Source: an uncultured Verrucomicrobiota bacterium (GTDB taxonomy: Bacteria; Auribacterota; JABMQX01). Taken from it: DNA of 64,000 nt. Where the stretch lies: positions 43,452 to 107,451 of the forward strand of contig CAZXGF010000007.1 in assembly GCA_964640185.1 (NCBI GenBank). The letters are read 5' to 3'. Position 1 is the first letter of the stretch. Each line of letters begins with the position of its first letter. Under the pieces are notes generated by a model. The model did no database searches. It was not told the DNA's origin and was given only the letters and a program-made list of their open reading frames with translations. The position numbers and the translations under genes were made by a program. Below, piece after piece: positions 3,256 through 56,938 of this stretch.

Positions 3256-3762
3256 TGTCTCTTCTCCTTATCGTTGCGAAACGTTTCCCTTTCCAGCTAA
3301 AGAAGACGCTGCGGGGCATACTCTTCTTCCCCGTCATAGTCGAACTATCCTTTCATCATCCGCTTGAGGCACACGGTCGCTCTGCTGCAAAATAGTATAT
3401 TCACAATGGACAAGGTTATCATGCAATATTTTTGAGGGTTAATCCGGAGGAGCTGTTCGGACACCTTCGGCGAGGCGTTCACGGCTCTCGTTCTTCCGGC
3501 TCTGCGGCCGACCGGCAGACACCATCAACGTATGAGACAAGCGCCGCCGAAACGCAGCCTTATCCAATTTGGACTTTTCAAAGCATCGCGGATGGAGTAC
3601 AAGGGACGCTGGAAGTTAAGGTGCATTCTCGCGTTCGGCGCCGTCGTGGGTCGTTCGGGAAGTGACCTGATGCTCCAATGCTATTGTAAAGGCTGGAATG
3701 GGATAAACATTCTCCGGGCTTTGGGTTCGCTAATTAACGTCTGCAAGAAGGGTGAGAAAACG

Positions 3763-6363
3763 ATGCGGAATTGTTTCGTACGAGCAGTTGCGGCGACGGC
3801 AACGGCATTCCTGGCCACGGGGGCAATGTCAGAGAGTCCTCGGGGCGAGCAGCTCTTCTACCGGATGCTGGGTTCGAGAACGAATGCCCCGCTGCTTCCC
3901 AAGTCGCGCACGGCGTGCACGCGAGAAGGGGCCGAAAGAACGGGCTCAACCGGTATGTCGGACAGCGGATTCACGGAGTATCCATTCTGTTCTGGGAAGG
4001 TGAGCTACACGTTCGTCGAGAAATACGCATACTTCCCCCGCATCGCGTCGGGCATCGCCATCGCCCCGGGTCGCGTCAATGCCGGCGACATCCTCATTGA
4101 TCACGTCTATGAGCCGGACGGGTGCGTGTGGGGTCCTTCGGGGCGGGAGTTCATTCAGACGTTTGTGGCCTCGGGGCGGGAACTCGTCAGCGTGACGCTG
4201 TTAGTGGCTTCCGAGCCGGGAGCGTTCCGTGCGGCCCCGATCGAAGGCGGCCCCGACGGGCGGCAGGTCGGTCCCGCGAAAACATTCTACTCGGGCCATT
4301 CGCTGGAGACGGGGACGGCTCGCTGGACAGCGGGCGAGGCGCCCCTTGCCCCTGGCGGGAGCTACGCTATCCGGCTGTGGCGTGAAGACGGTCAGTCGTG
4401 GAAACCCTATCTTCACTCGACGGGGAACGCTTACGATGACGGTCTCCTGTACGTTGACGGAGTGGCGCGGCCGGAAAGCGACCTGGCTGCCTGGATCATC
4501 GAAGAACCGCCCGGCCTTTCGCGAGCCATCATCGAGAACGCCGACGGCGATGGTTGGGTTTACGATACGACCGGCATCGTGCTCATTCCCCGCACACCGA
4601 ACGTGCGGTTAGTCTCGGTTCGCGTTTCGCCAGTCGCGGGAAAGGCCTGCGACATGGTTCTACGCATCTGGTCAACCGGTTCGGAGCCCGGTCTCGTCGC
4701 GGGCCCGAAACGGTGTCTGTCAGGGGGAGGCAAGGATGAACCTCATCCGGCCCACTTCCTTTTCGCGGCAGATGAATTGAAGGTCGTGGCGGGTGAGCCG
4801 TATCGGATGGAGCTGTTCACGGTTCCATACAAAGCGAAGTTACCTGACCCGAAGAAGGTGCAAATCGTTCCACGCGATATTCAGGTGAGAGTGTACGGCG
4901 AGCCGGAGCCCGGCGCGCTGCCGGCAATCGCCAATCTTGCGGCCCGCTTCGACGAAGAGAAGTTACTTCGGCTTTCCTGGGTCGTCTCCTTTCCGTGTCC
5001 AACGCACATCGAGATCTCTCGCGTCGGTTCGTCGGACCGCGAGGCGTTCGACCTGGAGTCCGGGGCATCGGAAGCGGTCATCCCCAAGCTGTGGCCCGGG
5101 CACGACTACGATTTTCGACTCGAAGCGACAGGGCCGACGGGCCTTCGCTGGAAGACGCCGGTTTATCGCGTGAGAGTGCCGGGCGGCCCTCATCCGCCGC
5201 CGCCTCCGTACATGTATCCGGAACATCCGCACGCGCTCGTGCACCTGGCGCCGCCGCCGCTCCCTCATCCGCCGGATTGGGGTGTCATCCGATTCCGCGA
5301 GCGAGTTGCGGTCGCCAACGCCGATTTCGAAAACGGGCTGGAGGGATGGAGTGTTGATCCGAAGGGGGTGATTTACGCCGCTGGAAACGAGCACGGTATC
5401 TCGCCGCCGGTTGGTCGAAAGATGGCCGGTTGGTCTCATCAGGCGGGTGAAAAGCGGGAACAGGTCTTTGAAACGAGCAATCTCTACCAGAAGGTCGCGA
5501 CGAAACCCGGTCACCAATATCTTTTGTCCGCCCGGGCTTGTACCGCGGTGGGAAAAGGCGGGCCGCGTGGCGACACCCGCATGCGGTTTTTCGCCGACCC
5601 CAACGGCGGAACCGATTTCGGCGACGCGAATTCAAGCCAGTGGTACTGGACGGACGGGCGGTGGCTTCGCTTCCAGCACCGCTGGGTCGCGACGTCGGAG
5701 CAGGCGACAATCGGCGCTGGTTTCTTCCGCTGGCGCGACCTGGACATTGCCAGCGCGTATGTGGACCACGTACTTGTGTTCGACCTCGGTTTCGTTCCAA
5801 AGACGGCGGCTGAGCCGCCCGCGCGAGCCAGGGGCGTACCCGGAGTTGTTCTGTCCGGCTCTCGGGTCGAAGCGAGCGAGCGAGTCGAGGCGGAGCTATC
5901 GGCGCCGCCCGGCTACGTCATCACGGGCCTGGGTGCGCGTGCCGCCGGCGATAACATCACGACGATGAGAATTCGCATTTGTCCGCTGTTGCCTGATGGA
6001 AGTTTGGGCGAGCCGGAGGAAATGCTGAGCGGTTGGGAGCCAGATGCGGGTTTGGAGGCCAATATTGACCTCCCAGAAGGCTACGTTGCGACCGGGTTTG
6101 GCGGGCGAATCGCCCCGGAGTGGGATGTGAAAACCTTTGCCGTGTGGGGGCGGCCGCTGCTGCCTGGAGGCGCCCTGGGCGAGGAGAAGGAGTTCCGCGC
6201 GGGCATCGAACCTAACGGGGGACTTGAGCGAAAGGTCCGCCTTGAGGAAGGCCGCGTGCTCATCTCCGCAGGCCTCCGCTGCGCGTTCAACGATGTCGCC
6301 GGCATCAGCGCCCGGTCTGCGAAAATCCTTCGTACCGCGACGGCCCGGCGCGATTCCAGGTGA
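3763..6363 (+). CDS. Large secreted hypothetical protein with CBM4/9-like carbohydrate-binding domain and C-terminal tandem repeats
   Basis: Start chosen at internal ATG 3763 (MRNCFVRAVAATATAFLATGAMS, signal-peptide-like). Contains the ADFENGLEGWS...YVDHVLVFDL jelly-roll CBM signature, a poly-Pro linker (PHPPPPPYMYPEHPH...APPPLPHPP), and two ~40-aa tandem repeats (PGYVITGLGARAAG... / EGYVATGFGGRIAP...). Confidence 0.55.
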   Translation: MRNCFVRAVAATATAFLATGAMSESPRGEQLFYRMLGSRTNAPLLPKSRTACTREGAERTGSTGMSDSGFTEYPFCSGKVSYTFVEKYAYFPRIASGIAIAPGRVNAGDILIDHVYEPDGCVWGPSGREFIQTFVASGRELVSVTLLVASEPGAFRAAPIEGGPDGRQVGPAKTFYSGHSLETGTARWTAGEAPLAPGGSYAIRLWREDGQSWKPYLHSTGNAYDDGLLYVDGVARPESDLAAWIIEEPPGLSRAIIENADGDGWVYDTTGIVLIPRTPNVRLVSVRVSPVAGKACDMVLRIWSTGSEPGLVAGPKRCLSGGGKDEPHPAHFLFAADELKVVAGEPYRMELFTVPYKAKLPDPKKVQIVPRDIQVRVYGEPEPGALPAIANLAARFDEEKLLRLSWVVSFPCPTHIEISRVGSSDREAFDLESGASEAVIPKLWPGHDYDFRLEATGPTGLRWKTPVYRVRVPGGPHPPPPPYMYPEHPHALVHLAPPPLPHPPDWGVIRFRERVAVANADFENGLEGWSVDPKGVIYAAGNEHGISPPVGRKMAGWSHQAGEKREQVFETSNLYQKVATKPGHQYLLSARACTAVGKGGPRGDTRMRFFADPNGGTDFGDANSSQWYWTDGRWLRFQHRWVATSEQATIGAGFFRWRDLDIASAYVDHVLVFDLGFVPKTAAEPPARARGVPGVVLSGSRVEASERVEAELSAPPGYVITGLGARAAGDNITTMRIRICPLLPDGSLGEPEEMLSGWEPDAGLEANIDLPEGYVATGFGGRIAPEWDVKTFAVWGRPLLPGGALGEEKEFRAGIEPNGGLERKVRLEEGRVLISAGLRCAFNDVAGISARSAKILRTATARRDSR

Positions 6364-6481: not shown

Positions 6482-7924
6482 ATGATGAGAACTATCGCGA
6501 CGCTGATTTTTGTTGTCGGCATACTGCATGCCGTGAACTGTGCCTCAGCCGCAGACGGTAAGGAAAGTTTTGTTCGGGTCAGCGAGGATGGGCAGGGTTT
6601 CACTGTTGATGGGAAACCGTGGCATCCGTTCGGGTGCAACTATTTCGACCCACATGTGGGTTGGGCGCCGAAACTATGGCAGAAGTTCGATGCGGAAGAA
6701 GTGGAGTCTCATTTCCGTGTGATGCGGGAGCTCGGCGTGAACGTAGTGCGTGTGTTCCTTACGGCGGAGAGTTTTTTTTCTCGGCCGCCGAATCTCGAAC
6801 CAGCCGCACTCGAAAAGTTCGACAAAATGCTCGACATCGCTCGCCGATACGGGATTCGACTCCATCCCACAGGCCCTGACCACTGGGAAGGCTCCCCGCC
6901 ATGGCGGAGAACGGACTTTATGGCTGAGCCGAAAGCGCTCGATGCACAGGTGGCTTTCTGGAAAGCGTTTGCCTCGCGATACCGCGACGAACCAGCGATT
7001 TTCGCGTACGACATTTTGAACGAGCCGCAGGTGCGCTGGAACACATCGGCAATGAAAATACAGTGGCCCGTTTGGCTTCGCGAGCAGTACGGCACAGTGA
7101 AGACTCTGCGCGACGCGTGGGGCGGCGAGGCGCAGGATATTCGCTCGTTTGACAAGGTCGCAATCCCGCCGGATGCGCCAGCGACGAAGTCGCGTGCGCT
7201 GTTAGATTACCAGCGATTCCGGGAATGGGTGGCGGATCGCTGGGTCAGGGTGCAGGCGGAAGCGATACGTGCGGAAGCTCCGAACCACTTAGTAACCGTC
7301 GGCTTGATTCAATGGGCAATTCCGGCGTTTCAGGGCAAGCCTTCGCGGTACTCGGCGTTTCGCCCCTCGCGGATTGCGCCGATGCTGGACTTCCTTTCGG
7401 TCCACTTTTATCCCCTCTACGCCGGTGACCCGTTGGCCTCCGAGGAGAATTTCGACAGAAACCTCGCGTCTCTTGAACTTGTGCTTCGTTACGTAAAAGC
7501 GGGTGCGCCGCGAAAACCTATCTTAGTCGGTGAGTTTGGCTGGCACGGCGGCGGGAGGCCAGACCGTTTAGAAGAACGCTCCGCTGAAGGTCAAGCGCGG
7601 TGGTGTCGGGCGGCGGTTCTTCAAGGGCGAGGGATTGCGGCGGGCTGGCTGAACTGGGCGTACGCGGACACGCCCTCCGCCCGGGATGTGACCAAGTTTT
7701 CCGGCTTGGTCACTGAAGACGGAAAGCCGAAGGCCTGGGGCTTAACGTTTCGTGAAATGGCAAGGCGCCCCGATTTCTGGGCCACGGCGAGGAGAAAGCC
7801 TCAGTCCAGTGTGGTTTTCGATGTTGACCGAGCAATCTGCGATCCCAGAGCCGGCGATGCAGTGCTTCGGCGTTATTATGAAAAATGGAAAACCGAGAGA
7901 GGTTGTGAGCTAATCGTTCGCTGA
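6482..7924 (+). CDS. Glycoside hydrolase family 5-like (TIM-barrel; mannanase/cellulase type), secreted
   Basis: Signal peptide MMRTIATLIFVVGILHAVNCASA. Acid/base motif ILNEPQ and nucleophile motif VGEFGWHG at the expected spacing. Confidence 0.8.
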   Translation: MMRTIATLIFVVGILHAVNCASAADGKESFVRVSEDGQGFTVDGKPWHPFGCNYFDPHVGWAPKLWQKFDAEEVESHFRVMRELGVNVVRVFLTAESFFSRPPNLEPAALEKFDKMLDIARRYGIRLHPTGPDHWEGSPPWRRTDFMAEPKALDAQVAFWKAFASRYRDEPAIFAYDILNEPQVRWNTSAMKIQWPVWLREQYGTVKTLRDAWGGEAQDIRSFDKVAIPPDAPATKSRALLDYQRFREWVADRWVRVQAEAIRAEAPNHLVTVGLIQWAIPAFQGKPSRYSAFRPSRIAPMLDFLSVHFYPLYAGDPLASEENFDRNLASLELVLRYVKAGAPRKPILVGEFGWHGGGRPDRLEERSAEGQARWCRAAVLQGRGIAAGWLNWAYADTPSARDVTKFSGLVTEDGKPKAWGLTFREMARRPDFWATARRKPQSSVVFDVDRAICDPRAGDAVLRRYYEKWKTERGCELIVR

Positions 7925-8047
7925 CGGGCAATGTCGCAGGCGTAAGGGAGCGCCGAGATATTGTTATTCTCCCACATTGCGGGGGCAAGTTGCGGTTGGT
8001 GCAAGGGAAACCGCGACGAGAAACATCACTCGAAAAGGAGGATTGTC

Positions 8048-10348
8048 GTGAAAACATTTCATAGTTTCCTTTGTCCGGCCTTGCTGGCATGCACGTTTTT
8101 TCTTTCACCGCTGAGGCATGCCGAACCCGCAGAGGGCGAGTGGGTCCTCTGGTATCGCCAGCCGGCCGAAAAATGGGTCGAAGCGCTGCCCCTCGGGAAC
8201 GGGCGCTTAGGCGCGATGGTTTTCGGCGGCGCCGAAAGCGAGCGCATCCAGTTCAACGAAGACACCCTCTGGCGGGGCGAACCGCACGACTACTCGCACA
8301 ATGGCGCCGCGAAGTATTTGCCGACTATCCGCAAGCTGCTCTTCGAAGGGAAACAGAGAGACGCCGAACGTCTTGCGATGGACCGCTTCATGAGCGTGCC
8401 GTTGCGGCAGACAGCGTATCAGCCCTTCGGCGACCTGCTGTTGGACTTCCCCGGCCACGGCAAAGCAAGTGACTATCGTCGCCAGTTGGACATTGACTCT
8501 GCGGTCGCAGCGGTCCGCTATCAGGTTGCTGGTGTGACGTTTCAGAGGAAAGTGTTCGCCAGCGCACCGGATCAGGTCATCGTCGTTCGGATCACCGCCG
8601 ACAAGCCCGGGCACATAAGCTTCACCGCGAGACTGACGACTCCCCATCCGGGTTCAAAGACGCGTGCCGTGGGCAACGACCAGATCGCGCTCTCCGGCGG
8701 TGTGAAGGGTGGAGCGATTGCGTTCGAGGCCCGCCTTCTCGCGTCCGCAGACGGAGGCGAGGTGAAGGTCAGCGACAAGAGCATCCAGGTCAGGGATGCC
8801 AACGCGGCAATGCTTCTGCTGGCAGGCGCCACGAATCACGTGAACTTCAAAGACGTCGGCGCCGACCCGGCGCAGCGCTGCCAGAAGGTGATGAAGGCCG
8901 TGGAGGGGAAGAGGTACGATGTCCTGCGCAAAGCTCATGTCGCCGACCATCAACGCCTTTTCCGACGAGTCGGTCTCGACCTGGGTTCCACCGAAAGGTC
9001 GAAATTGCCGACCGACGAACGAATCAAAATGTCGGCCGAAGGCAATGACCCGCAGTTGGCGGCTCTCTACTTCCAGTTCGGCCGGTACCTGATGATAGCC
9101 AGCTCGCGCCCGGGCTCTCAGCCCGCAAACTTGCAAGGAATCTGGAACGAAAGCATGCGCCCGCCCTGGGACAGCAAGTGGACGGTGAATATCAACACCG
9201 AGATGAACTACTGGCCTGCCGAGCCGTGTAACCTTGCCGAGTGCCATCAGCCGCTGTTTGATATGCTCAAAGAAGTAATGATTTCCGGCCGCGACACCGC
9301 GAAGGCGCATTACAACTGCCACGGTTGGGTTCTCCACCACAACACCGACCTCTGGCGCGGCACGGCGCCGATCAACCACTCAAACCACGGCATCTGGCCG
9401 ACCGGCGGCGCGTGGCTGTGCCAGGACCTTTGGTTGCATTACCAGTACGGTGGCGACAGGAAATTCCTCGAGACGCGGGCGTACCCAATCATGAAGGACG
9501 CGGCGCTGTTCTTCACCGATTTCCTGATTGAGGACCCACGCAGCGACAGGGGATGGCTCATAAGCACGCCCAGCAACTCGCCGGAACAAGGCGGGTTGGT
9601 AGCGGGGCCGACGATGGATCACGAGATCATTCGCAATCTGTTCGGCAACGTAATCGAAGCGAGCAAAATCCTCGGCGTGGACGAAGAACTTCGCGACAAA
9701 CTCACCGAGATTCGCAACCGAATTGCCCCGAACCAGATCGGCCGACACGGTCAGTTGCAGGAATGGCTCGAGGACAAGGACGACCCGAACAACCACCACC
9801 GTCACCTTTCACATCTCTGGGCCGTGTACCCCGGCGACGAGATAACTCTTCGCGGCACGCCCAAGCTCGCGGCAGCCGCAAGAAAATCGCTCGAGTTTCG
9901 GGGCGACGGCGGAACCGGGTGGAGTACGGCGTGGAAGGTGAACCTCTGGGCGAGGTTCGAGGATGGCGAAAGAGCGTACAAAATCATCCGCCGGCTCCTG
10001 GCGGTTTGCACACTGCCGAACATGTTCGACAACCATCCGCCGTTTCAGATTGACGGCAACTTTGGCGGCTCCGCGGGGATCGCCGAAATGCTTTTGCAGA
10101 GCCACGCCGGCGAGATCAACTTGCTGCCAGCTCTCCCGAAAGCCTGGCCGAAGGGGTTCGTGAAAGGGCTGCGGGCACGCGGCGGGTTTGAAGTGGACAT
10201 CAACTGGGAAGGCGGCAAGCTGACCAAAGCTGTGGTCCGGTCGCAGCTCGGGAACATTTGCAAAGTCCGCTATGGCGAGAAGGTGGTTGAGCTCAAAACC
10301 CGCGCCGGTAAGGCGTATCGCCTGAACCGTGAACTCGAGCAGATGTGA
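8048..10348 (+). CDS. Glycoside hydrolase family 95 (alpha-L-fucosidase-like), secreted
   Basis: GTG start at 8048 with an AAAGGAGG SD 6 nt upstream and a signal peptide. GH95 N-terminal signature [38 protein letters not shown]. The 7961 ORF start is an upstream extension. Confidence 0.85.
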
Positions 10349-10559: not shown

Positions 10560-12629
10560 TTACGGCCGGCCTTTGGACACCGGCCAGGTGGCGCGAAACT
10601 CGTCCTGATAGAGGCCAATTTTATCAAAGCGAATCTTTTTGAACACGGGGATTTTCCGGTAAACGATGGAATCATCTTTCAGTTGGAAATTCATCTTCGC
10701 GGCGTCCACAAACCCCGGGTCCTCGTCGGTAATGAAATTATCTGCGACCTTGATATATTTCCTGTCCGGATCGTGCCAACTGCTCCGGTAGGACACATTG
10801 TTCACGACGACGTTGCCGAGCGGCGCCTGCGGGTGCTCCTCCAGAATGCGCGCCAGTTTCGGATACCTCATGCTCCAGGGCGGTTGCTTAATCCTGAACC
10901 GCTTGAGCGGCTCGTACATGGGCCCGCCAGGACGGAAGTGGTCCCAGGTCAACCCTCGCGTGTCGAGATGCACAGGCTGTTCGCACTCGATAAAGATGTT
11001 ATTCTGCACGATGTTGTCTCGCCCGCCCCCGATAAACGCCGACTCTCTCGTTTCATAAAAGACGTTGCCGAAAATCTCCGTCGAGCTGGCGCAGTCGTCA
11101 AGGTAAACCACCTTCGAGCCGAAGCCCGGCCTGAAGGGAATATGATGTATGAAGTTGTATCGCACCACGTTCCCCCGAAACGTCCAGTCGCGCCCAGTGT
11201 AGAGAACCCCCGCATCGCTCGACTCTAAGACAACATCGTGAATCTCGTTGAGCTCGATGAGGTGGTCGTTGCCGTCATACCCTATCGCCTGATGGGGGGC
11301 ATCGTGAATCAAGTTATGTGCGACCCGGTTGCCCACGCCCTGAATTTTCACCCCCGGGTACCAGGTTTTCAAGCACCTTGCGTAATGATGAATGTGATTA
11401 TTGATCGCACAAAGCCCCGCCGGAGCGAGCGTTTTCCGGTCCCCGCCCGACATGCGAATCCCCATCGCATCCAGATCGTAGATGTCGCAGCCCACAACGC
11501 CGTTCTCCTTTCCGCCGGCCAAGATGACCCCCTGACTCGCGTGGCGGATGACGCATCCGGCGATGCGGTTGTGCTGGCCCGCTCCTACCACTATTGCCAG
11601 CCCGCGCATCACTTCCAGAGTCAAACCCCGGATAGTGATGTACGATGTGTTATCCAGCGACACCATTGCTTCCTGCAACATTGAAGCCAGCAGCGGGCCT
11701 TTCCGAAAATCCTCCGGAGGCAGGAAGTACAAGATGCCTTTCTTGCGGTCGAGATACCACTCCCCGGGCTGATCTACCTCCTCCAGCACATTCACGGCGA
11801 AGAAACGCCGCCACGTCTGCAAATGAGGAGGGGCACGCCAGCCCAGAAGGATTTCCCGCCTCTCCCGGTCGAAGCCGACCGGATTCCAGCCGTCATATTG
11901 ATACTCCTGCTGCCAGTAGCCGCGAAGCCAAACCGCCTCCAGAGTGCCCCAGAGGTTCGGAGAATCTCCGCTATACTTGAACGCCAAAATCTTGCCCAGC
12001 TTGCCTTGCTTTGCTAATCGCGCCGCCGCATCCTCATCGAGGCCGACCGCCTTGGCGCTGCGAGCCAGCGCCCAACCTTCATTGGGCCAGCGAGCCAATT
12101 GCATTCGCTTCCCGTTGCGAAATAATTTCAGCCCACCCGCCAGGCTTCCCAGTTCGCCGTAATCTGTGATCCCATGCTCTCTCAGATTGACCTGGAGCAC
12201 TTTGCCGCGAACCCCTTTCTCCAGGCGTCTGAGAACGCCGGGGTCCTTCACCGGCTCAAACCACGACGCTGGCAGTTCTTCCCCGCCCACCAGGCGCACT
12301 GTTTCCTTGCCGTACGCACGATATGTTACCGGCGACTCTTTCGTCCCCGAATCCTCCTGCGTCAATTGAAACGTGTGCGTGCGATGGTACAGCCCGCCCC
12401 TGATCCAAACCGTAACCGGTTCCTTCAACGAGCCAGCCTCCTTTAGCCTGCGGATTGCATCGCGCGCGCCCTCAAGGCTCCGGAAAGGACTCTCTTCTGT
12501 CCCGGCGTTGGCATCACTTCCGTTCGTCGCGACATAGAGCTCGACGCCCCTGCCCATATCGACCGCTGACACCTGCAGGAAAACCACAAATGCAATGGCC
12601 GCCGTAAGAGTCACCTGCTTCGCTAGCAC
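10560..12629 (-). CDS. Right-handed parallel beta-helix (pectin-lyase fold, DUF1565-like) secreted protein, paralog A
   Basis: 689 aa with signal peptide. DUF1565-type N-terminus (LYVATNGSDANAGTEESPFRSLEGARDA). The C-terminal ~260 aa are near-identical to the paralog at 13575..15716. Confidence 0.75.
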   Translation of the reverse strand: MLAKQVTLTAAIAFVVFLQVSAVDMGRGVELYVATNGSDANAGTEESPFRSLEGARDAIRRLKEAGSLKEPVTVWIRGGLYHRTHTFQLTQEDSGTKESPVTYRAYGKETVRLVGGEELPASWFEPVKDPGVLRRLEKGVRGKVLQVNLREHGITDYGELGSLAGGLKLFRNGKRMQLARWPNEGWALARSAKAVGLDEDAAARLAKQGKLGKILAFKYSGDSPNLWGTLEAVWLRGYWQQEYQYDGWNPVGFDRERREILLGWRAPPHLQTWRRFFAVNVLEEVDQPGEWYLDRKKGILYFLPPEDFRKGPLLASMLQEAMVSLDNTSYITIRGLTLEVMRGLAIVVGAGQHNRIAGCVIRHASQGVILAGGKENGVVGCDIYDLDAMGIRMSGGDRKTLAPAGLCAINNHIHHYARCLKTWYPGVKIQGVGNRVAHNLIHDAPHQAIGYDGNDHLIELNEIHDVVLESSDAGVLYTGRDWTFRGNVVRYNFIHHIPFRPGFGSKVVYLDDCASSTEIFGNVFYETRESAFIGGGRDNIVQNNIFIECEQPVHLDTRGLTWDHFRPGGPMYEPLKRFRIKQPPWSMRYPKLARILEEHPQAPLGNVVVNNVSYRSSWHDPDRKYIKVADNFITDEDPGFVDAAKMNFQLKDDSIVYRKIPVFKKIRFDKIGLYQDEFRATWPVSKGRP
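10575..11360. repeat. ~0.78 kb near-identical direct repeat, copy 1 (3-prime part of beta-helix gene A); partner at ~13618..14400
   Basis: Direct reading: the DNA is almost base-for-base identical between the two tracts. Identity stops abruptly at ~11340/14380, although both genes continue as diverged paralogs. Confidence 0.85.
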
Positions 12630-12662: not shown

Positions 12663-13433
12663 CTATGCCTCGCCAAGGTGAAATTTCCTTCTGAACTTGT
12701 TCATCACATCCAGGTATTCTTTGGGCTTATGCTTCCTCAGCGCCTTCCACAGCGTGGGGTCCGCTTCAGGTTCGTTAACGAAATGACTGACCTTAGCCAC
12801 GCAGTCCAGGACATCTTCAACCCCCGTTTGCGCGGGTTTCCCGCCTACCATCCTTTGCGTGTAGTCCATCGACGTTGTCACATACTCTGACCCAAAGCAG
12901 CACACCTCAAAGTGGTTCTCCACCGAGTCGTACAGTCGGCGCAATTCCGTGACCGATACCCCAGGGACGTTCCTTGACGGTAAGCCGGTGCGGTCATCCA
13001 GGAGCCTGTGAGCTATGATCTTGTCGCGGAGTTCCTTCACCTTCTTGCGAATCGGTCCGAGCGCTGTGTCCAACTTGCTTTGTCGCAAGCGCGTCTGATA
13101 CGCTTTCTTTTGTTGAGGGTCCAGCCAATGCAGTTGCAGCAGCCTATTTCTGAACCTGGGCAGTGTGTGGGCGTTTTCTCCTCGGTCTTCAACTAACCCG
13201 TGAGCAAGGATGACCGCGGCATAAGTGAAATTCCAGTACAGGGTGTACCAAAAGGTCATCTTGTTAGGGCCATAGAAGTAATCAAAAGGGAATTCCGTGA
13301 TTTTCTCGAGGGTGATAATCGTGTCATTAAGATGAACCAGCCTGTGCCAAATGTTCGTATGGAGGTCATAGTAAGCTTCAAGCGACTCTTGTTTGAGGAG
13401 ATCCTCAGGCCTTTTATCGTTGATATTCGTCAC
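12663..13433 (-). CDS. Low-GC hypothetical protein (probable horizontally acquired gene) between the two beta-helix paralogs
   Basis: GTG start at 13433 with a GAAGGAGG SD 9 nt upstream (VTNINDKRPEDLL...). AT-rich codon usage clearly unlike the flanks. No recognisable enzymatic family. Contains an R-x5-H motif (RDKIIAH). Confidence 0.55.
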   Translation of the reverse strand: MTNINDKRPEDLLKQESLEAYYDLHTNIWHRLVHLNDTIITLEKITEFPFDYFYGPNKMTFWYTLYWNFTYAAVILAHGLVEDRGENAHTLPRFRNRLLQLHWLDPQQKKAYQTRLRQSKLDTALGPIRKKVKELRDKIIAHRLLDDRTGLPSRNVPGVSVTELRRLYDSVENHFEVCCFGSEYVTTSMDYTQRMVGGKPAQTGVEDVLDCVAKVSHFVNEPEADPTLWKALRKHKPKEYLDVMNKFRRKFHLGEA

Positions 13434-13574
13434 CGTTTGGTTCCTCCTTCGAGGTGAATAGCGGCGCCATCGCCGCCTCCAGGGACAACACTGTTTACAG
13501 GACCGCTCAAATACGCCCAATGTTACGGCGGCCGTTGTCAGTCGGGTCAGTGGTGCGCGCCAGTTGTGACGACC

Positions 13575-15716
13575 CTACATGCCGCCGCGCCGAAGGCCGG
13601 TGTTGCCGCCTGCGTTCGACACCGGCCAGGTGGCGCGAAACTCGTCCTGATAGAGGCCAATTTTATCAAAGGGAATCTTTTTGAACGCGGGGATTTTCCG
13701 GTAAACGATGGAATCATCTTTCAGTTGGAAATTCATCTTCGCGGCGTCCACAAACCCCGGGTCCTCGTCGGTAATGAAATTATCTGCGACCTTGATATAT
13801 TTCCTGTCCGGATCGTGCCAACTGCTCCGGTAGGACACATTGTTCACGACGACGTTGCCGAGCGGCGCCTGCGGGTGCTCCTCCAGAATGCGCGCCAGTT
13901 TCGGATACCTCATGCTCCAGGGCGGTTGCTTAATCCTGAACCGCTTGAGCGGCTCGTACATGGGCCCGCCAGGACGGAAGTGGTCCCAGGTCAACCCTCG
14001 CGTGTCGAGATGCACAGGCTGTTCGCACTCGATAAAGATGTTGTTCTGCACAATGTTGTCTCGCCCGCCCCCGATAAACGCCGACTCTCTCGTCTTGTAA
14101 AAAACGTTGCCGAAAATCTCCGTCGAGCTGGCGCAGTCGTCAAGGTAAACCACCTTTGAGCCGAAGCCCGGCCTGAAAGGAATATGATGTATGAAGTTGT
14201 ATCGCACGACGTTCCCCCGAAACGTCCAGTCACGCCCAGTGTAGAGAACCCCCGCATCGCTCGACTCGAGGACTACATCGTGGATCTCGTTGAGCTCGAT
14301 GAGGTGATCGTTGCCGTCATACCCTATCGCCTGATGGGGGGCATCGTGAATCAAGTTATGTGCGAGCCGGTGGCCGACGCCGTAGATTCTCACCGCCGGC
14401 TGATAGACCTTCTTTCGCTGCGAGTAATGATGAATGTGACAGTTCACCACATAATTCCCCGCCGGAGTCAGTGTCGAGCGGTTTCCGCCGGTCATGCGAA
14501 CGGCCGTCGAGCCCACCTCGTGAATATCACACCCGAGGACGCCGTTGTTCGTCCCGCCGTCCAAAACGACAGCATGAGAGCCTATGCAGCGGACGACGCA
14601 TCCCGCGAGGCAGTTATGTGTCCCGCCTCCCACAACGGCCCCCACGCCGCGCGTCACTTCGAGAGTCAGTCCTCGAATTGCGACGTAGGAAGTGTTGGCC
14701 AGCGTCACTAACGGCTCCTTCAAGCTGGAGCAGTATAATGTGTGCTTCCGAAAATCCTTTGGAGGCCAGAAGTACAATACGCCTTTCTTGCGGTCGAGGA
14801 ACCATTCCCCCGCCCGGTCTATCTCCTCCAAAAGGTTCAGCGCATAGAACCACTGCCCGCTTTTAATCCCGCCACCCGGAGTCGAGACGAGCGTGATTTC
14901 CCTCTTTTCCGTATCAATGCGCTCAATCCCGACGTGCTGATCCATCCAGCCGTACCACCAGAAGCCGTGCAATACAACTTCCTCGGCATTGACCCAGCGT
15001 TTCGGGCGGTCGCCGCTGTACCTGAACGTCTTGCCCTGCTTGTTTCCATCCACCAGCCGCCGCGCCGAATCCTCACCGATTTCGATGACCTTGCCGATAT
15101 GAGCCCAGCCTTTATTGGGCCAGCGCGCAAGTTGCATCCGGCTGCCGTTCCAAAACAGCTCCAGCATCGGCCCGGAAATCGAAAGCTCACCGTAATCGGT
15201 GATGCCGCGAGCCTTCAAATCCACCTGCAACACTTTGCCGCGAGCGTCCCTATCCAAACGGCTCAGAACCGCTGTGTCTTTCACCGGCTGGAGCCACGAC
15301 GGCTTTATCTCCAGCCCGCCCACGAGACGCACGTTTTCCTTCCCGTAAGCCCGATAGAGCACCGGCGCCTCTTTCGTCCCCGAATCCTCTTTGGTCAACT
15401 GAAACGTCTGCGTGCGATAGTAAACGCCGTCCCGAATCCAAACCGTAACGGCGCCCTTCAGCGGCCCGGACCGCTTCAGGCGGCGGACGGCGTCTCGCGC
15501 ACCCTCCGGGCTCCGGAAAGGTTTTCCTTTCGTCCCGGGATTGGTGTCGCTTCCATCGCTCGCGACGTAGAGCTCAACAGTTTCTGCTGCGGCCGCCGGC
15601 AGATGCGGAGCGGCAGGGGACAGCAAAGCGGACTGAGCCATTGCAGCGTAACCGGCGGGAACGAGGCACGCCGAAAACAGTAAAACCGTAACTTGCTCAC
15701 GACGGAAGAAATTCAT
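13575..15716 (-). CDS. Right-handed parallel beta-helix (DUF1565-like) secreted protein, paralog B
   Basis: 713 aa with signal peptide. N-terminus ELYVASDGSDTNPGTKGKPFRSPEGARDA. The C-terminal third is near-identical to paralog A. Confidence 0.75.
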   Translation of the reverse strand: MNFFRREQVTVLLFSACLVPAGYAAMAQSALLSPAAPHLPAAAAETVELYVASDGSDTNPGTKGKPFRSPEGARDAVRRLKRSGPLKGAVTVWIRDGVYYRTQTFQLTKEDSGTKEAPVLYRAYGKENVRLVGGLEIKPSWLQPVKDTAVLSRLDRDARGKVLQVDLKARGITDYGELSISGPMLELFWNGSRMQLARWPNKGWAHIGKVIEIGEDSARRLVDGNKQGKTFRYSGDRPKRWVNAEEVVLHGFWWYGWMDQHVGIERIDTEKREITLVSTPGGGIKSGQWFYALNLLEEIDRAGEWFLDRKKGVLYFWPPKDFRKHTLYCSSLKEPLVTLANTSYVAIRGLTLEVTRGVGAVVGGGTHNCLAGCVVRCIGSHAVVLDGGTNNGVLGCDIHEVGSTAVRMTGGNRSTLTPAGNYVVNCHIHHYSQRKKVYQPAVRIYGVGHRLAHNLIHDAPHQAIGYDGNDHLIELNEIHDVVLESSDAGVLYTGRDWTFRGNVVRYNFIHHIPFRPGFGSKVVYLDDCASSTEIFGNVFYKTRESAFIGGGRDNIVQNNIFIECEQPVHLDTRGLTWDHFRPGGPMYEPLKRFRIKQPPWSMRYPKLARILEEHPQAPLGNVVVNNVSYRSSWHDPDRKYIKVADNFITDEDPGFVDAAKMNFQLKDDSIVYRKIPAFKKIPFDKIGLYQDEFRATWPVSNAGGNTGLRRGGM
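13618..14400. repeat. ~0.78 kb near-identical direct repeat, copy 2 (3-prime part of beta-helix gene B)
   Basis: See copy 1. Identity begins at ACACCGGCCAGGTGGCGCGAAACTCGTCCTG in both copies. Confidence 0.85.
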
Positions 15717-18295: not shown

Positions 18296-18386
18296 ATTCG
18301 TGCCCTTGCGAGTTGTGTATTGTGCATGAGCGAGGCAAAGCACTCAGTTATTACTCCGAGCGCTATCCAGTTCACAGCATCCTTAG

Positions 18387-18899
18387 GGCTCCGGTTCATA
18401 AATTCGGTGACGTATTTGCTGGGACAGGATAACAGGATGGACATGATTCTTGGAATCCTGTTTTATCCTTTGCGAAATGTCCTTGGCCTTTCGCTTTACC
18501 TCAACTTCTCACGTACTGGCTTACCGGCGGCAACGAGCGGGTTAATGAGTTGTGGCTCCTGAGCCACCACAATGACCGGCTCGACCCCGCGGCACGCGGG
18601 CCTCGACGATGACCATATCTCTTTTGACCCAACCATGACTGACCCGGAAGGTCTGGAGCAACGTGGCACGGGCGTCTCGCCCGTGGTCTCGCCCGTGGAA
18701 GGTCATGGGCAGGATGCCCATGCCACGTCTTCTCCGACGATTCCTTGCCGTTCGTGCTCTTTGACCCGGCGGCCCGCCGGCCTGTGATTTACTGGATGCT
18801 TCACGTCTCCAGAACAATCCCGTTCACGCCGATGGCGTGATTATCCCGTCAAAATAGCTCCTTTCACGACACCATCATACGTCACCCGATTTGCGAATC
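18387..18899. mobile_element. MITE-like non-coding element, copy 1 (imperfect ~25-30 bp terminal inverted repeats, TA target duplication)
   Basis: Left end TA|GGGCTCCGGTTCATAAATTCGGTGACGTATTTGC. Right end ATACGTCACCCGATTTGCGAATCCATGTACT|TA. The termini are reverse complements (GGTGACGTAT / ATACGTCACC). A second copy lies at 54928..55379. This copy contains an internal fragment of the R1 hairpin. Confidence 0.6.
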
Positions 18900-18906
18900 C
18901 ATGTAC

Positions 18907-19521
18907 TTAGGCAGCGGCATAAACGACATGTTCTTCTCGAAAGTGACTTGTGACGATGTCCGGTCGGTGCCGGGTGCTGCGGAGGTAGGCCCGAACCTGC
19001 CCTATCATTTCTTTCGGGTTGTGGGGACGCTGACGGCCAACCGCATTGGTCTTGACATCTTGATTGACAAGCTCGTCCGGATTCAGTTCCGGACTGTAAG
19101 AGGGCAGGAGGAACATACGGATGCAGTCGGACTGGCGAACCAGCCGGCGCTCGAGCTCGCCGGAGCGATGGACGGGATGGTGATCCACGATGAGGAACAT
19201 CTTCCGTCTCGTATGCTTCAGTAAGCGGCGAAGGAAGCGCATCATCACCTTGGAGCTGAACCGGTCCTCGAAAACCATAAACGCCAGTTGGCCCCTGCTG
19301 GTGATGGAGGACATCATGTCACAACCAATGCGTTGACCGGCCCCAGGAATGACCGGCGTCCGACCGCGTTTCCCGTACGAGCGACCCGCTTCATCCAGCC
19401 GTTGACCGCAACGCGAGAAACTTAGAACACCCGCGCCACCACGCTGTGACTCATGTTCTGTTGCGGGACCGCCGCCGCCACCCGACGGCGGAGGCCTTCC
19501 TGCGCTTCCGGAGAAAGGCAC
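18907..19521 (-). pseudogene. IS630/Tc1-family transposase remnant (C-terminal DDE region only)
   Basis: Hallmark motif FLLPSYSPELNPDE plus LIVDHHPVH. The N-terminal HTH and first catalytic Asp are missing, and upstream sequence is replaced by the R1 repeat. Lies directly next to the MITE right end. Confidence 0.7.
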
Positions 19522-19694
19522 CGTGCATCTTTAATAATCATACATAGAACTAACCTCCTCGTCAATTATATAATGCCCCCGTTAGTAATCCCTCAGTCTC
19601 GGGCGGGACATGGGGACTTTGGGGTAAGAGTCATGCGCAAACATCAACATCCCGCGGGACGCGGGACCCCAGGTCAGGCTCTGCGCCTCACGGC

Positions 19695-19906
19695 CAAAAG
19701 AACAGCCGTCCCCCCATGTGGCATCCCGCTGGGGGCGGGACCCGTGGAAATCATGGGCAAGATGCCCATGCCACGGCAGGCGACCACGGAGTCTCTCTCA
19801 TTCTCCTCTCTGCGCCTCTGCCCCGCGTCTCGCGGGGTTACCCTCCTCCTCCCTTTTTCCCTCCGCCGCCTTGGCGGCGTATCGGCCTGAGACTGAGGCA
19901 TTACGG
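19695..19906 (+). repeat. R1 structured repeat, copy A
   Basis: Two hairpins (CCCGC-TGGGG-GCGGG and CATGGGCA-AGA-TGCCCATG), then a CT-rich tract ending GAGACTGAGGCATTAC. Homologous copies at 45040..45247 (-), 52198..52403 (+) and 56465..56640 (+). Confidence 0.8.
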
Positions 19907-44595: not shown

Positions 44596-45035
44596 AATAT
44601 TGATGTGGCTCCATTTCAGTGGCGGAACTGTCCTTGGACCTAACCCGTGCCGGAATCTCGACCCCATCCCAACACTCACCTTTACGAAGAGGAGAAAACG
44701 CCGGGCCATTCGAACTGGACTCGAGGAATCTTTCGAGTCGTGACGCACATATCTCGCCCTTTCAGGGCTCATCATTCTTGAACCGGGGCCCTTTCTCAGG
44801 GCGTTGCCCTGAGCTTTATTAAGTCTGCCCTTACAGGGCGACCCGAAAGCAATCTTCAGCCCTGAAAGGGCGCAATATTTTAGCCCAGGGCAACGCCCTG
44901 GGGAAATATCACGTGGTAAAATACAAAAGCCCTGAAGGGGCGTAATAGGCTCATCCCCAATACACGGTTCGCACCAGACACACGACAGCGGACCCGCGTG
45001 CCACTGAAATGGAGCCACACCCAATAATATGGATG
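44596..45035. repeat. Cluster of nested palindromes bounded by inverted copies of TGGCTCCATTTCAGTGG
   Basis: Inverted motif copies at 44603-44628 and 45003-45030. Inside: GCCCTTTCAGGGC / AGCCCTGAAAGGGC and the perfect palindromes CAGGGCGTTGCCCTG and CAGGGCAACGCCCTG. Confidence 0.6.
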
Positions 45036-45039
45036 AGAG

Positions 45040-45247
45040 TGTAACGCCTCCGTCTGGGGCGGGTACGGAGCTGCGGGCGAGAACAAGGGAAAAGGAGGGT
45101 AACGCAAAGGCGCAGAGTCGCAGAGAGGAGCATGAGAAGGACTCTGTCGTCGCCTGCCGTAGCATGGGCATCTTGCCCATGATTCCTCCACGGGTCCCCC
45201 GCCAGACGCGGGGGATGCCGCGTGGGCGACGGCTGTTCTTTTTCACC
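45040..45247 (-). repeat. R1 structured repeat, copy D (minus orientation, upstream of the minus-strand ABC operon)
   Basis: Hairpin 1 is extended (CCCCCGC-GTCTG-GCGGGGG). Hairpin 2 is CATGGGCAAGATGCCCATG. CT-rich tract follows. Confidence 0.8.
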
Positions 45248-45793
45248 TGAAAGGCGCAGCCCGAGCCGGCGTCCCGCGTCCCGCGGGATGTTCATGCTTT
45301 CGCATTGCTCTTGCCGCAAAGTCCCCCTATCGCACCCGCAACTGAGGGATTACAAAAAGAATCTTACGCTCGGGCGAGCGCTCCCCAATGGACCGGGGGC
45401 GACCGCAGCACACGTCGGCCCCGGCTCTCACACCAGAGGGAGAAAAGAATTTTTCGCTTGGGGGCGTAATGCCTATGCGATACGATAGGTGCGTTATGCA
45501 AAGAAGCCCCATTCAAAATCTGCCGGGTCACAGCACACCCAATAGCAATTCTGTCGAGCATCTATTCCATGACGAAGAGTGGCAGTTCGGGGGGGATGGC
45601 TAAATCCGGCACACCGCTGCTACCGGGGCGTACGCCCCTGGCGGCGCCGGAGCTCGGAATGCGATTCAGTTTGTTCCGCGGCTCGTGCAAAGGGGCCGCG
45701 ACGTGTGATTGACAACCGCGCTCCGCCGCAGAAAAGAGTTAGAATGGGAAATGCTGGCGTCGAGCTCGAAGACGTGGGAAAAGGAAACGAGAC

Positions 45794-51691: not shown

Positions 51692-52197
51692 CCCTCGAGA
51701 CTCGCCGTTAGGCGCAATCTCGGTTTGTCCGAACCCTTGCTTTCTGCCTCACCACCGCCGCAACGTAAAACCGGCGGCCGACTTACATCGAAAAGATGTC
51801 CGCCGGCGAAATGCGGACTCGGCGCCCTGATTTCCTTTTCCGCGAGCGTATTTGATATGAAGCTTTATCGCCCCTTTGGTCTGTCGAAACCTCGCCCAAT
51901 CGAAAACACTTAAACACAATCTTCTGGTACTGGAATCCCATGTGAATATCTTGTTCCTGATACGAATTGGATTACTACGTTTCAGTCCCTGGAACCTGTT
52001 CGGCGTACCGAGAAACGATTGCATGTACATTTGACACAGTCCCTTTTCATTGGCGTCAGCAGAAATGGAACTACGAACCTCCGAAACTCCCAGATGGTAG
52101 CCCACGTTCGTCGCTTGTTATCGTAAGTCCCTGATTTGCAAGGGGCCGATTTTTCAGTTTGTCATTACATCGCCCTTTCAGGGCTGTACCCTTCGCG

Positions 52198-52403
52198 GCA
52201 AAAAAAGCCGCTCCCCACGTGGCATCCCGCCGGAGGCGGGACCCGTGGGAATCATGGCCAAGATGGCCATGCCACGGCAGGCGAAGACGGGTTCCCTCTC
52301 ATCCTCCTCTGTGCGACTCTGCGGCTTTTGCGTTACCCTTCTCTTCTCTTTCTCCCTCCCCCGCCGTGGCAGGGCATCCGCCCAAGACTGAGGCCATACA
52401 CGC
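52198..52403 (+). repeat. R1 structured repeat, copy B
   Basis: Hairpin 1 is CCCGCC-GGA-GGCGGG. Hairpin 2 is CATGGCCAAGATGGCCATG, a double compensatory change versus copies A and D. It is preceded by a GCCCTTTCAGGGC motif. Confidence 0.8.
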
Positions 52404-54819: not shown

Positions 54820-54927
54820 GCTCCCATTGTCTTTGCGCAACTGTCCACTCCTCCGATAGCCCTCCGACCGACTGCCTCCCCGCACACTTTCATCTTCCCC
54901 CCGAAATATGGGATGGCCCTGCTTAAT

Positions 54928-55379
54928 GCTCCGATTCATAAGTTCGGTGACGTATTTGCCTCGACAGGATAACAGGATGGACATGATTCTTGGAATCCTG
55001 TCTATCGTTGCGAAAGGTTCTTGGCGTTTCGCTTTACCCCAACTTCTCACGTACTGGCTTACCGGTGGCAACGACTTCTGCTAACGAGTTGTATCTCCTG
55101 AGCCGCCACAACAACCTCGTTGATACACTTCCGCTCGACGATGACTGTGTGACTTTCGACTCCGCCATGGCTGTGCAGGAAGGTCTCGAACAACTTCGCC
55201 GCCAATTCCTTGCGCTTCGTCGTCTTTCACCAAGCGGCCTCTCCGGCGTGTGATTTACTGGATGCTTCACGTCTCTGGAACAATCCCGTTCACGCCGATG
55301 GCGTGATTATCCCGTCAAAATAGCTCCTTTCACCAGACCATTATACGTCACCGTATTTGCGGATCGATGTACTTAACCT
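54928..55379. mobile_element. MITE-like element, copy 2
   Basis: Left TA|ATGCTCCGATTCATAAGTTCGGTGACGTATTTGC. Right ATACGTCACCGTATTTGCGGATCGATGTACT|TA. The ends are ~85-90% identical to copy 1 and the internal region diverges. Confidence 0.6.
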
Positions 55380-56464: not shown

Positions 56465-56640
56465 GCGTCGCACGGGCGTCCCGCCCGTGAAGCATCATGA
56501 ACAAGATGCCCCTCCCACGGCAGGCGACGACGGAGTCCTTCTCATCCTCCTCTCTGCGACTCTGCGCCTTTGCGTTACCCTCCTTTTCCCTTGTTCTCTC
56601 ACGCAACTCGGTATCCGCCCGAGACTGAGGCCATACGCCG
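56465..56640 (+). repeat. R1 structured repeat, copy C (hairpins degenerate, CT tract intact)
   Basis: ...CATCATGAACAAGATGCCCCTCCCACGGCAGGCGACGACGGAGTCCTTCTCATCCTCCTCTCTGCGACTCTGCGCCTTTGCGTTACCCTCC... Flanked by TGGCTCCATTTCAGTG-type motifs. Confidence 0.7.
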
Positions 56641-56938
56641 CACCCACTTTTTTAGGGGTGTGGCTACATTTGAGTGGGTGATCTTGCCAAGTGCAACGCC
56701 ACCCCGCCATGGCGGGGCGGTCTCGAGGGCGTCTCGCCCTCGATTCTTTCTTATATCCTTTGCGTCTTCGCGTCTTTGCGAGAGGTCTCCCCCGTCCCAT
56801 TTCTCCCGCTAAGAAGCCAAGCGTCCTGTCCATCTTGTTTTTGACTTGCGGTTCTTCACTCCGAGTTCTGCGACGCGGAACAAACAAACCAAGGGCGAGT
56901 TCTCTACCACTTAAACGTAGCCGCACCCACTTTTTTAG

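Follow-up and report, generated by a model that had tools for sequence, protein, structure and literature searches.

At the locus described here a gene of 256 codons is placed between two tandem genes for right-handed beta-helix proteins, all three on the reverse strand, in a window (the whole stretch of DNA that was analysed) of 64 kb. The genes and features, in order of position, are:

10560..12629, reverse strand: bhA, beta-helix paralog A, 689 aa, GH141-like (Pfam Beta_helix 4e-14, NosD 4.9e-9 and a weak match to GH141_M)
10573..11344: gene-converted tract, copy in bhA, 772 bp, 96.9% identical to 13615-14386
12663..13433, reverse strand: gene for a divergent HEPN_AbiU2-family protein, with the HEPN core at about residues 15-178 and a conserved helical C-terminal extension at about residues 200-256
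13008..13028, reverse strand: codons of R136-D-K-I-I-A-H142, the predicted Rx4-6H motif of HEPN RNases, placed by conservation and model
13185..13187, reverse strand: codon of D83, just after the helix formed by residues 60-81
13434..13574, reverse strand: spacer of 141 bp from the bhB stop to the start of the HEPN gene
13443..13448, reverse strand: Shine-Dalgarno sequence AGGAGG, read from the sequence
13575..15716, reverse strand: bhB, beta-helix paralog B, 713 aa (Pfam Beta_helix 6.8e-12), upstream of the HEPN gene
13615..14386: gene-converted tract, copy in bhB, in the 3' part of the paralog

The reading frame of the HEPN gene is real, opens with GTG and encodes a protein that reads VTNINDKRPEDLL...KFHLGEA. 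The strong Shine-Dalgarno sequence that had been attributed to it is indeed present, nine nucleotides before the GTG at 13433, and the start that yields 256 aa is also the one used by gene callers in public assemblies. A longer reading frame of 285 aa, opening with TTG at 13520, was rejected because its extension, rich in R, C and W and judged to be non-coding, has no counterpart in the aligned homologues of the short form, and because the Shine-Dalgarno sequence precedes the GTG. All 11 independent copies of the gene in public metagenomes (11/11) were intact and 100% identical in DNA, which makes a strain-level dN/dS estimate impossible. Neither an ORF of antitoxin size nor tandem repeats nor a credible RNA family was found in the 141-bp spacer upstream, and no ORFs were present in either this spacer or the 33-bp spacer on the other side of the gene. 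The sole Rfam match in the spacers was to a eukaryotic IRES model, at chance level and below threshold. The start of bhA lies 33 bp past the HEPN stop on the same strand, with no terminator-like site found between them.

The surroundings are chromosomal and devoted to the use of glycans, harbouring GFO/IDH/MocA oxidoreductases, GH5/42-like and GH95 genes, an aldo-keto reductase (AKR) and an SDF symporter in addition to the beta-helix pair; the locus of the HEPN gene is a glycan-degradation cluster and not a defence island. A 943-aa ORF on the forward strand of this cluster (3532-6363) had no Pfam match at E <= 1e-5. Past the SDF symporter a DDE_3 transposase-like ORF is followed by thrS and pheT, and in the co-linear contig L011 infC, rpmI and rplT are found between thrS and pheT. 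The transposase-like ORF (18907-19521, reverse strand) is situated ~5.5 kb from the HEPN gene and is surrounded by short dispersed repeats, 81-88% identical (18382-18909 / 54922-55375; 19585-19899 / 45109-45353 / 52193-52394; 45001-45194 / 56484-56677). These repeats are probably IS remnants or MITE-like elements.

In the Pfam collection the window protein matched HEPN_AbiU2 (PF18734) partially, over residues 122-173, with 17.9 bits and E = 0.0023, below the gathering cut-off of 26.8 bits. The first homology search returned the protein itself and a single full-length relative (P0002), 39% identical over 99% of the query. This relative matched PF18734 above the cut-off with 35.1 bits over profile positions 4-169 of 193, and the match ended near residue 193 of its 270, short of the C-terminal extension. 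A profile search then yielded 69 homologues, most of them of 250-280 aa and aligned over nearly their full length, the few named relatives among them belonging to MAGs of Phycisphaerae or Sedimentisphaerales. An exhaustive HMMER search recovered 650 cluster representatives at E <= 1e-3, 461 of these at E <= 1e-10, and the family thus comprises at least 650 clusters at 50% identity. PF18734 was matched by 50 of the 63 aligned members (E <= 0.01), with a best E of 6.9e-13. Since its own score is below the threshold, the window protein is assigned to PF18734 through its homologues, by transitivity. The closest of these (P0046) is 51% identical, and no nearer relative was found.

Other collections contributed little. 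The window protein had no match in PADLOC or NCBIfam scans, neither of which holds a model for this HEPN family, and a PADLOC scan of the 63 family members returned just three single CARF matches at chance level. A sequence profile search of the PDB gave chance matches only (E > 0.07). The fold comparison that had been proposed as a check was carried out by Foldseek with a predicted model against PDB and BFVD, and nothing significant was returned at E <= 0.001. No relative was found in a scan of genome contigs with a two-sequence alignment, nor any homologue in a scan of viral contigs or by tblastn against plasmid and phage collections.

The original prediction had drawn attention to RDKIIAH as an R-x5-H motif and had guessed from it that the protein is of the HEPN type. 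The motif is present as R136-x5-H142 and the guess holds, being upheld by Pfam through the homologues, by the invariant R/H pair and by the correct placement of the motif in a confident model. As evidence, a motif this short is uninformative alone, as four R-x4-6-H strings occur in the protein; what gives it weight is that R136 and H142, the only conserved pair among the four, are each invariant in 63/63 family members. The residue that follows the arginine, position 137, is H (24), D (20) or N (11) in 55 of the 63 members. [quoted passage not shown] 2013, PMC3710099), and the window protein carries both the Rx4-6H spacing and the polar residue. In the alignment of 63 sequences the invariant residues are F61, W62, D83, R136, H142 and F175, and every invariant and nearly invariant residue of the family is retained in the window protein. 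D83 (63/63) is a candidate for the second acidic residue of the HEPN active site.

An AlphaFold2 model computed from the alignment of the family (pLDDT 91.7, pTM 0.87) is all-helical, with helices at residues 15-47 and 60-81, an insert at 91-118 (91-100 and 106-118), helices at 123-140 and 161-178, and a helical C-terminal extension at ~204-250. R136 is modelled in the last turn of the helix 123-140 and H142 at the start of the loop that follows, a placement that, as far as the model goes, agrees with that of the motif in solved HEPN structures. The HEPN call is strongly supported by sequence conservation and by the placement of the motif, with the fold search in a supporting part. We conclude that the window protein belongs, as a divergent member, to the AbiU2 branch of the HEPN superfamily. 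In annotations the gene can be labelled as encoding a HEPN_AbiU2-family putative RNase or abortive-infection protein, and it is an ordinary, orphan addition to an already known family of defence and toxin proteins.

The gene had also been described as low in GC and AT-rich in codon usage and, on these grounds, as foreign. The first part is correct: with a GC content of 0.512 against 0.578 for the window it ranks last among 46 ORFs (z = -3.0), and a value this low is reached by only 0.5% of 771-bp windows. The codons, on the other hand, are host-typical when the proposed check of GC3 and codon adaptation is made against the genes of the window, with a GC3 of 0.65 (z = -0.4; as low or lower in 16 of the 45 other ORFs) and a CAI of 0.728 (z = +0.05, with the window's own genes as reference). 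GC at codon positions 1 and 2 was 0.54 and 0.35, respectively, and the deficit lies at these two positions, so that it reflects amino-acid composition and not a choice of AT-rich codons. The homologous genes lie on average 5.3 GC points below their host loci, with a negative difference at 20 of the 24 loci compared; low GC characterises this HEPN family as a whole and does not serve as a sign of recent foreign origin. Host-like codon usage implies either that the acquisition was not recent or that the donor was similar in composition.

Near-identical direct repeats in the 3' parts of the two paralogs had been reported correctly and correspond to the 772-bp tract, which includes a fully identical core of 355 bp at 10646-11000. 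Outside this block bhA and bhB are 45-85% identical. In a relative with the same tandem pair (L019) the paralogs are not homogenised and are at most 78% identical, and the homogenisation of the 3' ends of these old tandem paralogs is recent and specific to the window lineage. Public assemblies repeatedly break within the repeat. The HEPN gene does lie between the two copies, as had been stated, but not exactly so, its ends being 181 bp from the copy in bhB and, across the 5' part of bhA, ~1.3 kb from the copy in bhA.

A scan of species-representative genomes with bhB identified two relatives in which the local gene order is kept. In the first, an unclassified MAG (L018, JABMQX01) with a short contig, AKR, bhB and bhA are 83%, 80% and 73% identical to those of the window, and in the second, an uncultured Planctomycetales MAG (L019), the corresponding values are 60%, 60% and 50%. 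In both, bhB is directly followed by bhA, with spacers of ~185 and ~60 bp, respectively, and neither syntenic locus contains a HEPN ORF or a tblastn match to one. The presence of the bhB-bhA tandem in both relatives shows that the duplication preceded the HEPN gene here. The presence and absence of the gene across relatives had been put forward as a test of its insertion, and the outcome agrees with a foreign, inserted gene, as does the patchy distribution of a family associated with mobile elements and R-M genes. A single gain in the window lineage, after its split from the nearest sampled relative, is most likely on the sequence comparison, given that AKR, bhB and bhA are syntenic without the HEPN gene in two relatives and that one gain is the most economical account.

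It might instead be argued that the HEPN gene stood between the paralogs from the outset and disappeared from the relatives. The comparison includes only two syntenic relatives, one of them on a short contig, and the host-like GC3 and CAI are what long residence would produce. Two independent losses would nevertheless be needed in place of one gain, the family is patchy, linked to R-M genes and transposons and without any relative above 51% identity, and the nearest homologues occupy unrelated contexts; ancestral presence is therefore improbable.

Arrival or retention of the gene through recombination between the paralogs, as suggested in the original prediction, is not supported. The tandem pair predates the insertion, and unequal recombination between the tracts would delete both the HEPN gene and the 5' part of bhA. 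No junction signature of paralog recombination was found at the locus, and nothing links the arrival of the HEPN gene to the gene conversion of the paralogs. The nucleotide match to L018 breaks off at 13615 and is picked up again at 12544; as the spacers cannot be aligned to those of L018, the insertion junctions are not definable. An inverted repeat of 15 nt with 14/15 matching positions (12593-12607 and 13523-13537) was considered as a transposon end and rejected; it is treated as a chance occurrence because its downstream arm falls in signal-peptide codons of bhA that are apparently conserved in L018, a conservation judged by eye from two sequences. Codon usage apart, the observations in the original prediction were largely correct, and its readings of a HEPN protein and of a foreign, inserted gene are supported.

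The short distance to bhA raises the question of whether the host has recruited the protein as an RNA-processing or regulatory factor for the beta-helix/glycan operon, in a non-toxic role. The two genes share a strand and are separated by 33 bp that contain no terminator-like site, and the codon usage of the HEPN gene is like that of the host. The gene is, however, absent from the same operon in the relatives, and no homologue was found between or beside beta-helix genes in the loci examined; the nearest approach is a GH106 gene in L007, ~3 kb from a HEPN homologue and on the opposite strand. Such recruitment is very improbable, and a functional link between the HEPN gene and the beta-helix genes was rejected in view of the homologues lying elsewhere and the syntenic relatives lacking the gene.

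For the genomic contexts of the relatives, the alignment of 63 sequences was too diverse for locus scans, and an alignment of 10 sequences of the nearer, short-form subfamily was therefore used; ORFs were called and neighbours clustered in 56 metagenome loci. Of the non-redundant loci, 27 extended 1 kb or more upstream, and 17 of these had an R-M gene upstream on the same strand. The dominant neighbour is a large protein encoded immediately upstream of the HEPN gene, whose domains (HSDR_N, Eco57I/N6_Mtase/MmeI_Mtase and TaqI_C) identify it as a type IIG R-M enzyme. A fusion of an N6_N4 methylase with an Mrr-like endonuclease also recurs as a partner; most of the R-M partners are type IIG, and three are such methylase-endonuclease fusions. 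Several loci leave no space in front of the HEPN gene, which abuts the preceding ORF or overlaps with it (gaps of -13 to 0 nt). A type IIG gene directly upstream, often overlapping the HEPN start, was seen in L036, L043, L045, L049, L067, L068, L072, L073, L077 and others. Other relatives adjoin IS110/DDE transposases, DUF4258, a PD-(D/E)XK nuclease, T5orf172 or a variable TIR gene, and some stand next to small genes reminiscent of toxin-antitoxin (TA) systems, such as DUF4258 with a 77-aa ORF. Some homologues are orphans with housekeeping neighbours, such as P0046 adjoining trpE and P0058 adjoining a gene for a glutamate-synthase-like oxidoreductase. No small partner is conserved across the ~40 loci, the only recurrent partner being the R-M gene.

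AbiU2 has previously been described as a HEPN family with a conserved Rx4-6H motif that is linked to R-M operons (PMC3710099), and the R-M coupling of the present subfamily is a useful by-product that was already foreshadowed there. The type IIG enzyme and the HEPN protein look like a two-gene module, the HEPN component of which has no PADLOC model. We would only tentatively suggest that the ~255-aa subfamily and its translationally coupled type IIG enzyme form an uncatalogued defence module in which the HEPN protein is a suicide backup for when restriction fails. If so, orphans such as the window copy, P0046 and P0058 would show that the effector can sense infection and act alone. The window copy, 33 bp upstream of a glycanase gene and between recombining repeats, might in addition be an addiction element that guards the tandem array against collapse.

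No homologue of the R-M partner was detected in the 64-kb window (tblastn, E <= 1e-6), and the absence of the usual partner from this whole stretch would fit an orphan effector that is no longer used, its R-M gene having been lost or left behind. Decay of this kind has precedent in L009, L010 and L055, in which the R-M gene is reduced to a fragment of ~100 aa beside an intact HEPN gene. A functionless leftover is at odds with the full-length ORF of the window copy, its complete set of invariant residues, the strong Shine-Dalgarno sequence, the host-adapted codon usage and the 11/11 identical and intact metagenome copies, and the orphans P0046 and P0058 within the subfamily suggest that the gene can function alone. 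We consider loss of function to be quite unlikely, and the reading of the window gene as a working, stand-alone effector is preferred.

The effector may be compared with several known systems. It resembles PF18734 HEPN_AbiU2 in having homologues above the threshold, in the Rx4-6H motif with a polar residue, in being a stand-alone domain and in its R-M-linked relatives, as in Table 1 of PMC3710099; it differs in its own sub-threshold score, in the C-terminal extension of ~60 residues and in having neither an R-M nor a Sel1 neighbour. The R-M-linked HEPN module of its own subfamily likewise differs from the window copy, which lacks the upstream same-strand R-M gene. In the AbiU system of L. lactis (AbiUi and AbiUii), AbiUii is the eponymous HEPN protein of PF18734, whereas the window gene has no adjacent AbiUi (an AbiU1/AIPR-type nuclease) and both its neighbours are beta-helix genes. 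The resistance of Lactococcus comes from AbiUi alone, whose activity is reduced by AbiUii (Dai et al. 2001, reviewed in PMC13064643); as AbiUii does not itself determine resistance, the eponym offers no positive functional precedent. A solo HEPN-AbiU2 integron cassette of V. mimicus, HNPBCG_15845, has on the contrary been reported to form a dimer and to give resistance to T4 and T7 (bioRxiv 10.64898/2026.03.17.712381). By description, this cassette is like the window gene in being a lone, single-gene HEPN-AbiU2 insertion, and it lends plausibility to the single-gene abortive-infection or toxin role that had been proposed, but no integron context is seen at the window gene, as far as a Pfam scan of its neighbours goes, and the 33-bp spacer downstream is too short for an attC site and contains no suitable inverted repeat. 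Functional precedents for AbiU2-type defence are accordingly mixed, HNPBCG_15845 speaking for it and AbiUii against it, and no demonstrated RNase activity was found for the AbiU2 family in the literature consulted.

HEPN domains are also common as toxins of TA systems (PDB 7ae2, 8xdj, 5yep), and the window gene could be a selfish toxin or addiction gene without any antiviral role, held by an antitoxin that has escaped recognition, be it a protein, an RNA or autoinhibition by the C-terminal extension, and serving only to maintain itself or the locus. Some relatives stand beside TA-like small genes (DUF4258 and the 77-aa ORF), and direct repeats whose recombination deletes the gene are a setting in which an addictive gene could resist loss. 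The HEPN-MNT toxins named above (type II/VII TA) are, however, only 8-13% identical to the window protein, which is about twice as long, they carry Rx4HxY in place of Rx5H, and there is no MNT antitoxin gene here. Type III TA/Abi systems (ToxIN, AbiQ type) depart from the locus in another way, as their tandem-repeat antitoxin RNA is absent from the window spacers. Nothing that could serve as an antitoxin, be it a small ORF, an MNT gene, a tandem-repeat RNA or an RNA of a credible Rfam family, lies next to the gene in the window, and among the relatives the R-M gene is the one partner that recurs. Addiction is on balance an unlikely explanation.

The reading we favour, with a probability of roughly 0.6, is that the window gene encodes an orphan, probably active HEPN RNase that serves as an abortive-infection or toxin effector. 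We infer RNase activity, dimerisation, a trigger and a defence role for the protein. The protein is predicted to fold into a HEPN core of four helices, in which a helical insert separates helix 2 from helix 3 and the putative catalytic Rx5H motif (R136, D137, H142) is placed at the end of helix 3; a helical extension of ~60 residues follows the core. Characterised HEPN enzymes usually form dimers in which the active site is composite, and by analogy with them the protein would most likely be a metal-independent endoribonuclease in which H142 may act as the general base, aided by R136, D137 and probably D83. The enzyme would remain latent until phage infection or stress and, once activated, would cleave cellular or phage RNA and so arrest the cell, with abortive infection or a toxin effect as the result. 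That the family-specific C-terminal extension is a regulatory or sensor module is speculation. The window copy would have been gained as a single gene in the spacer of pre-existing tandem glycanase-like genes, and would act without an R-M, MNT or AbiU1 partner.

A guess of one line, made from a motif, thus proved verifiable and led to a real member of a HEPN family. The tight coupling of the subfamily to type IIG R-M enzymes, seen in sediment Planctomycetota-like genomes, is more useful than the window gene itself. Copies linked to R-M genes and lone insertions in housekeeping or glycan loci constitute a natural series with and without partner, which lets the autonomy of R-M-linked HEPN effectors be tested. 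L032 (7868-8956) and L033 encode the same HEPN protein (P0059) and differ in the presence or absence of a downstream gene of 362 aa that is TIR_2-like, which suggests a variable defence hotspot. L009 and L010 share one cassette (7278-9670) composed of an N-terminal R-M fragment, a 145-aa ORF overlapping the HEPN start, the HEPN gene and a T4 endonuclease IV-like gene, and its position after different upstream genes in the two assemblies suggests that it moves as a unit.
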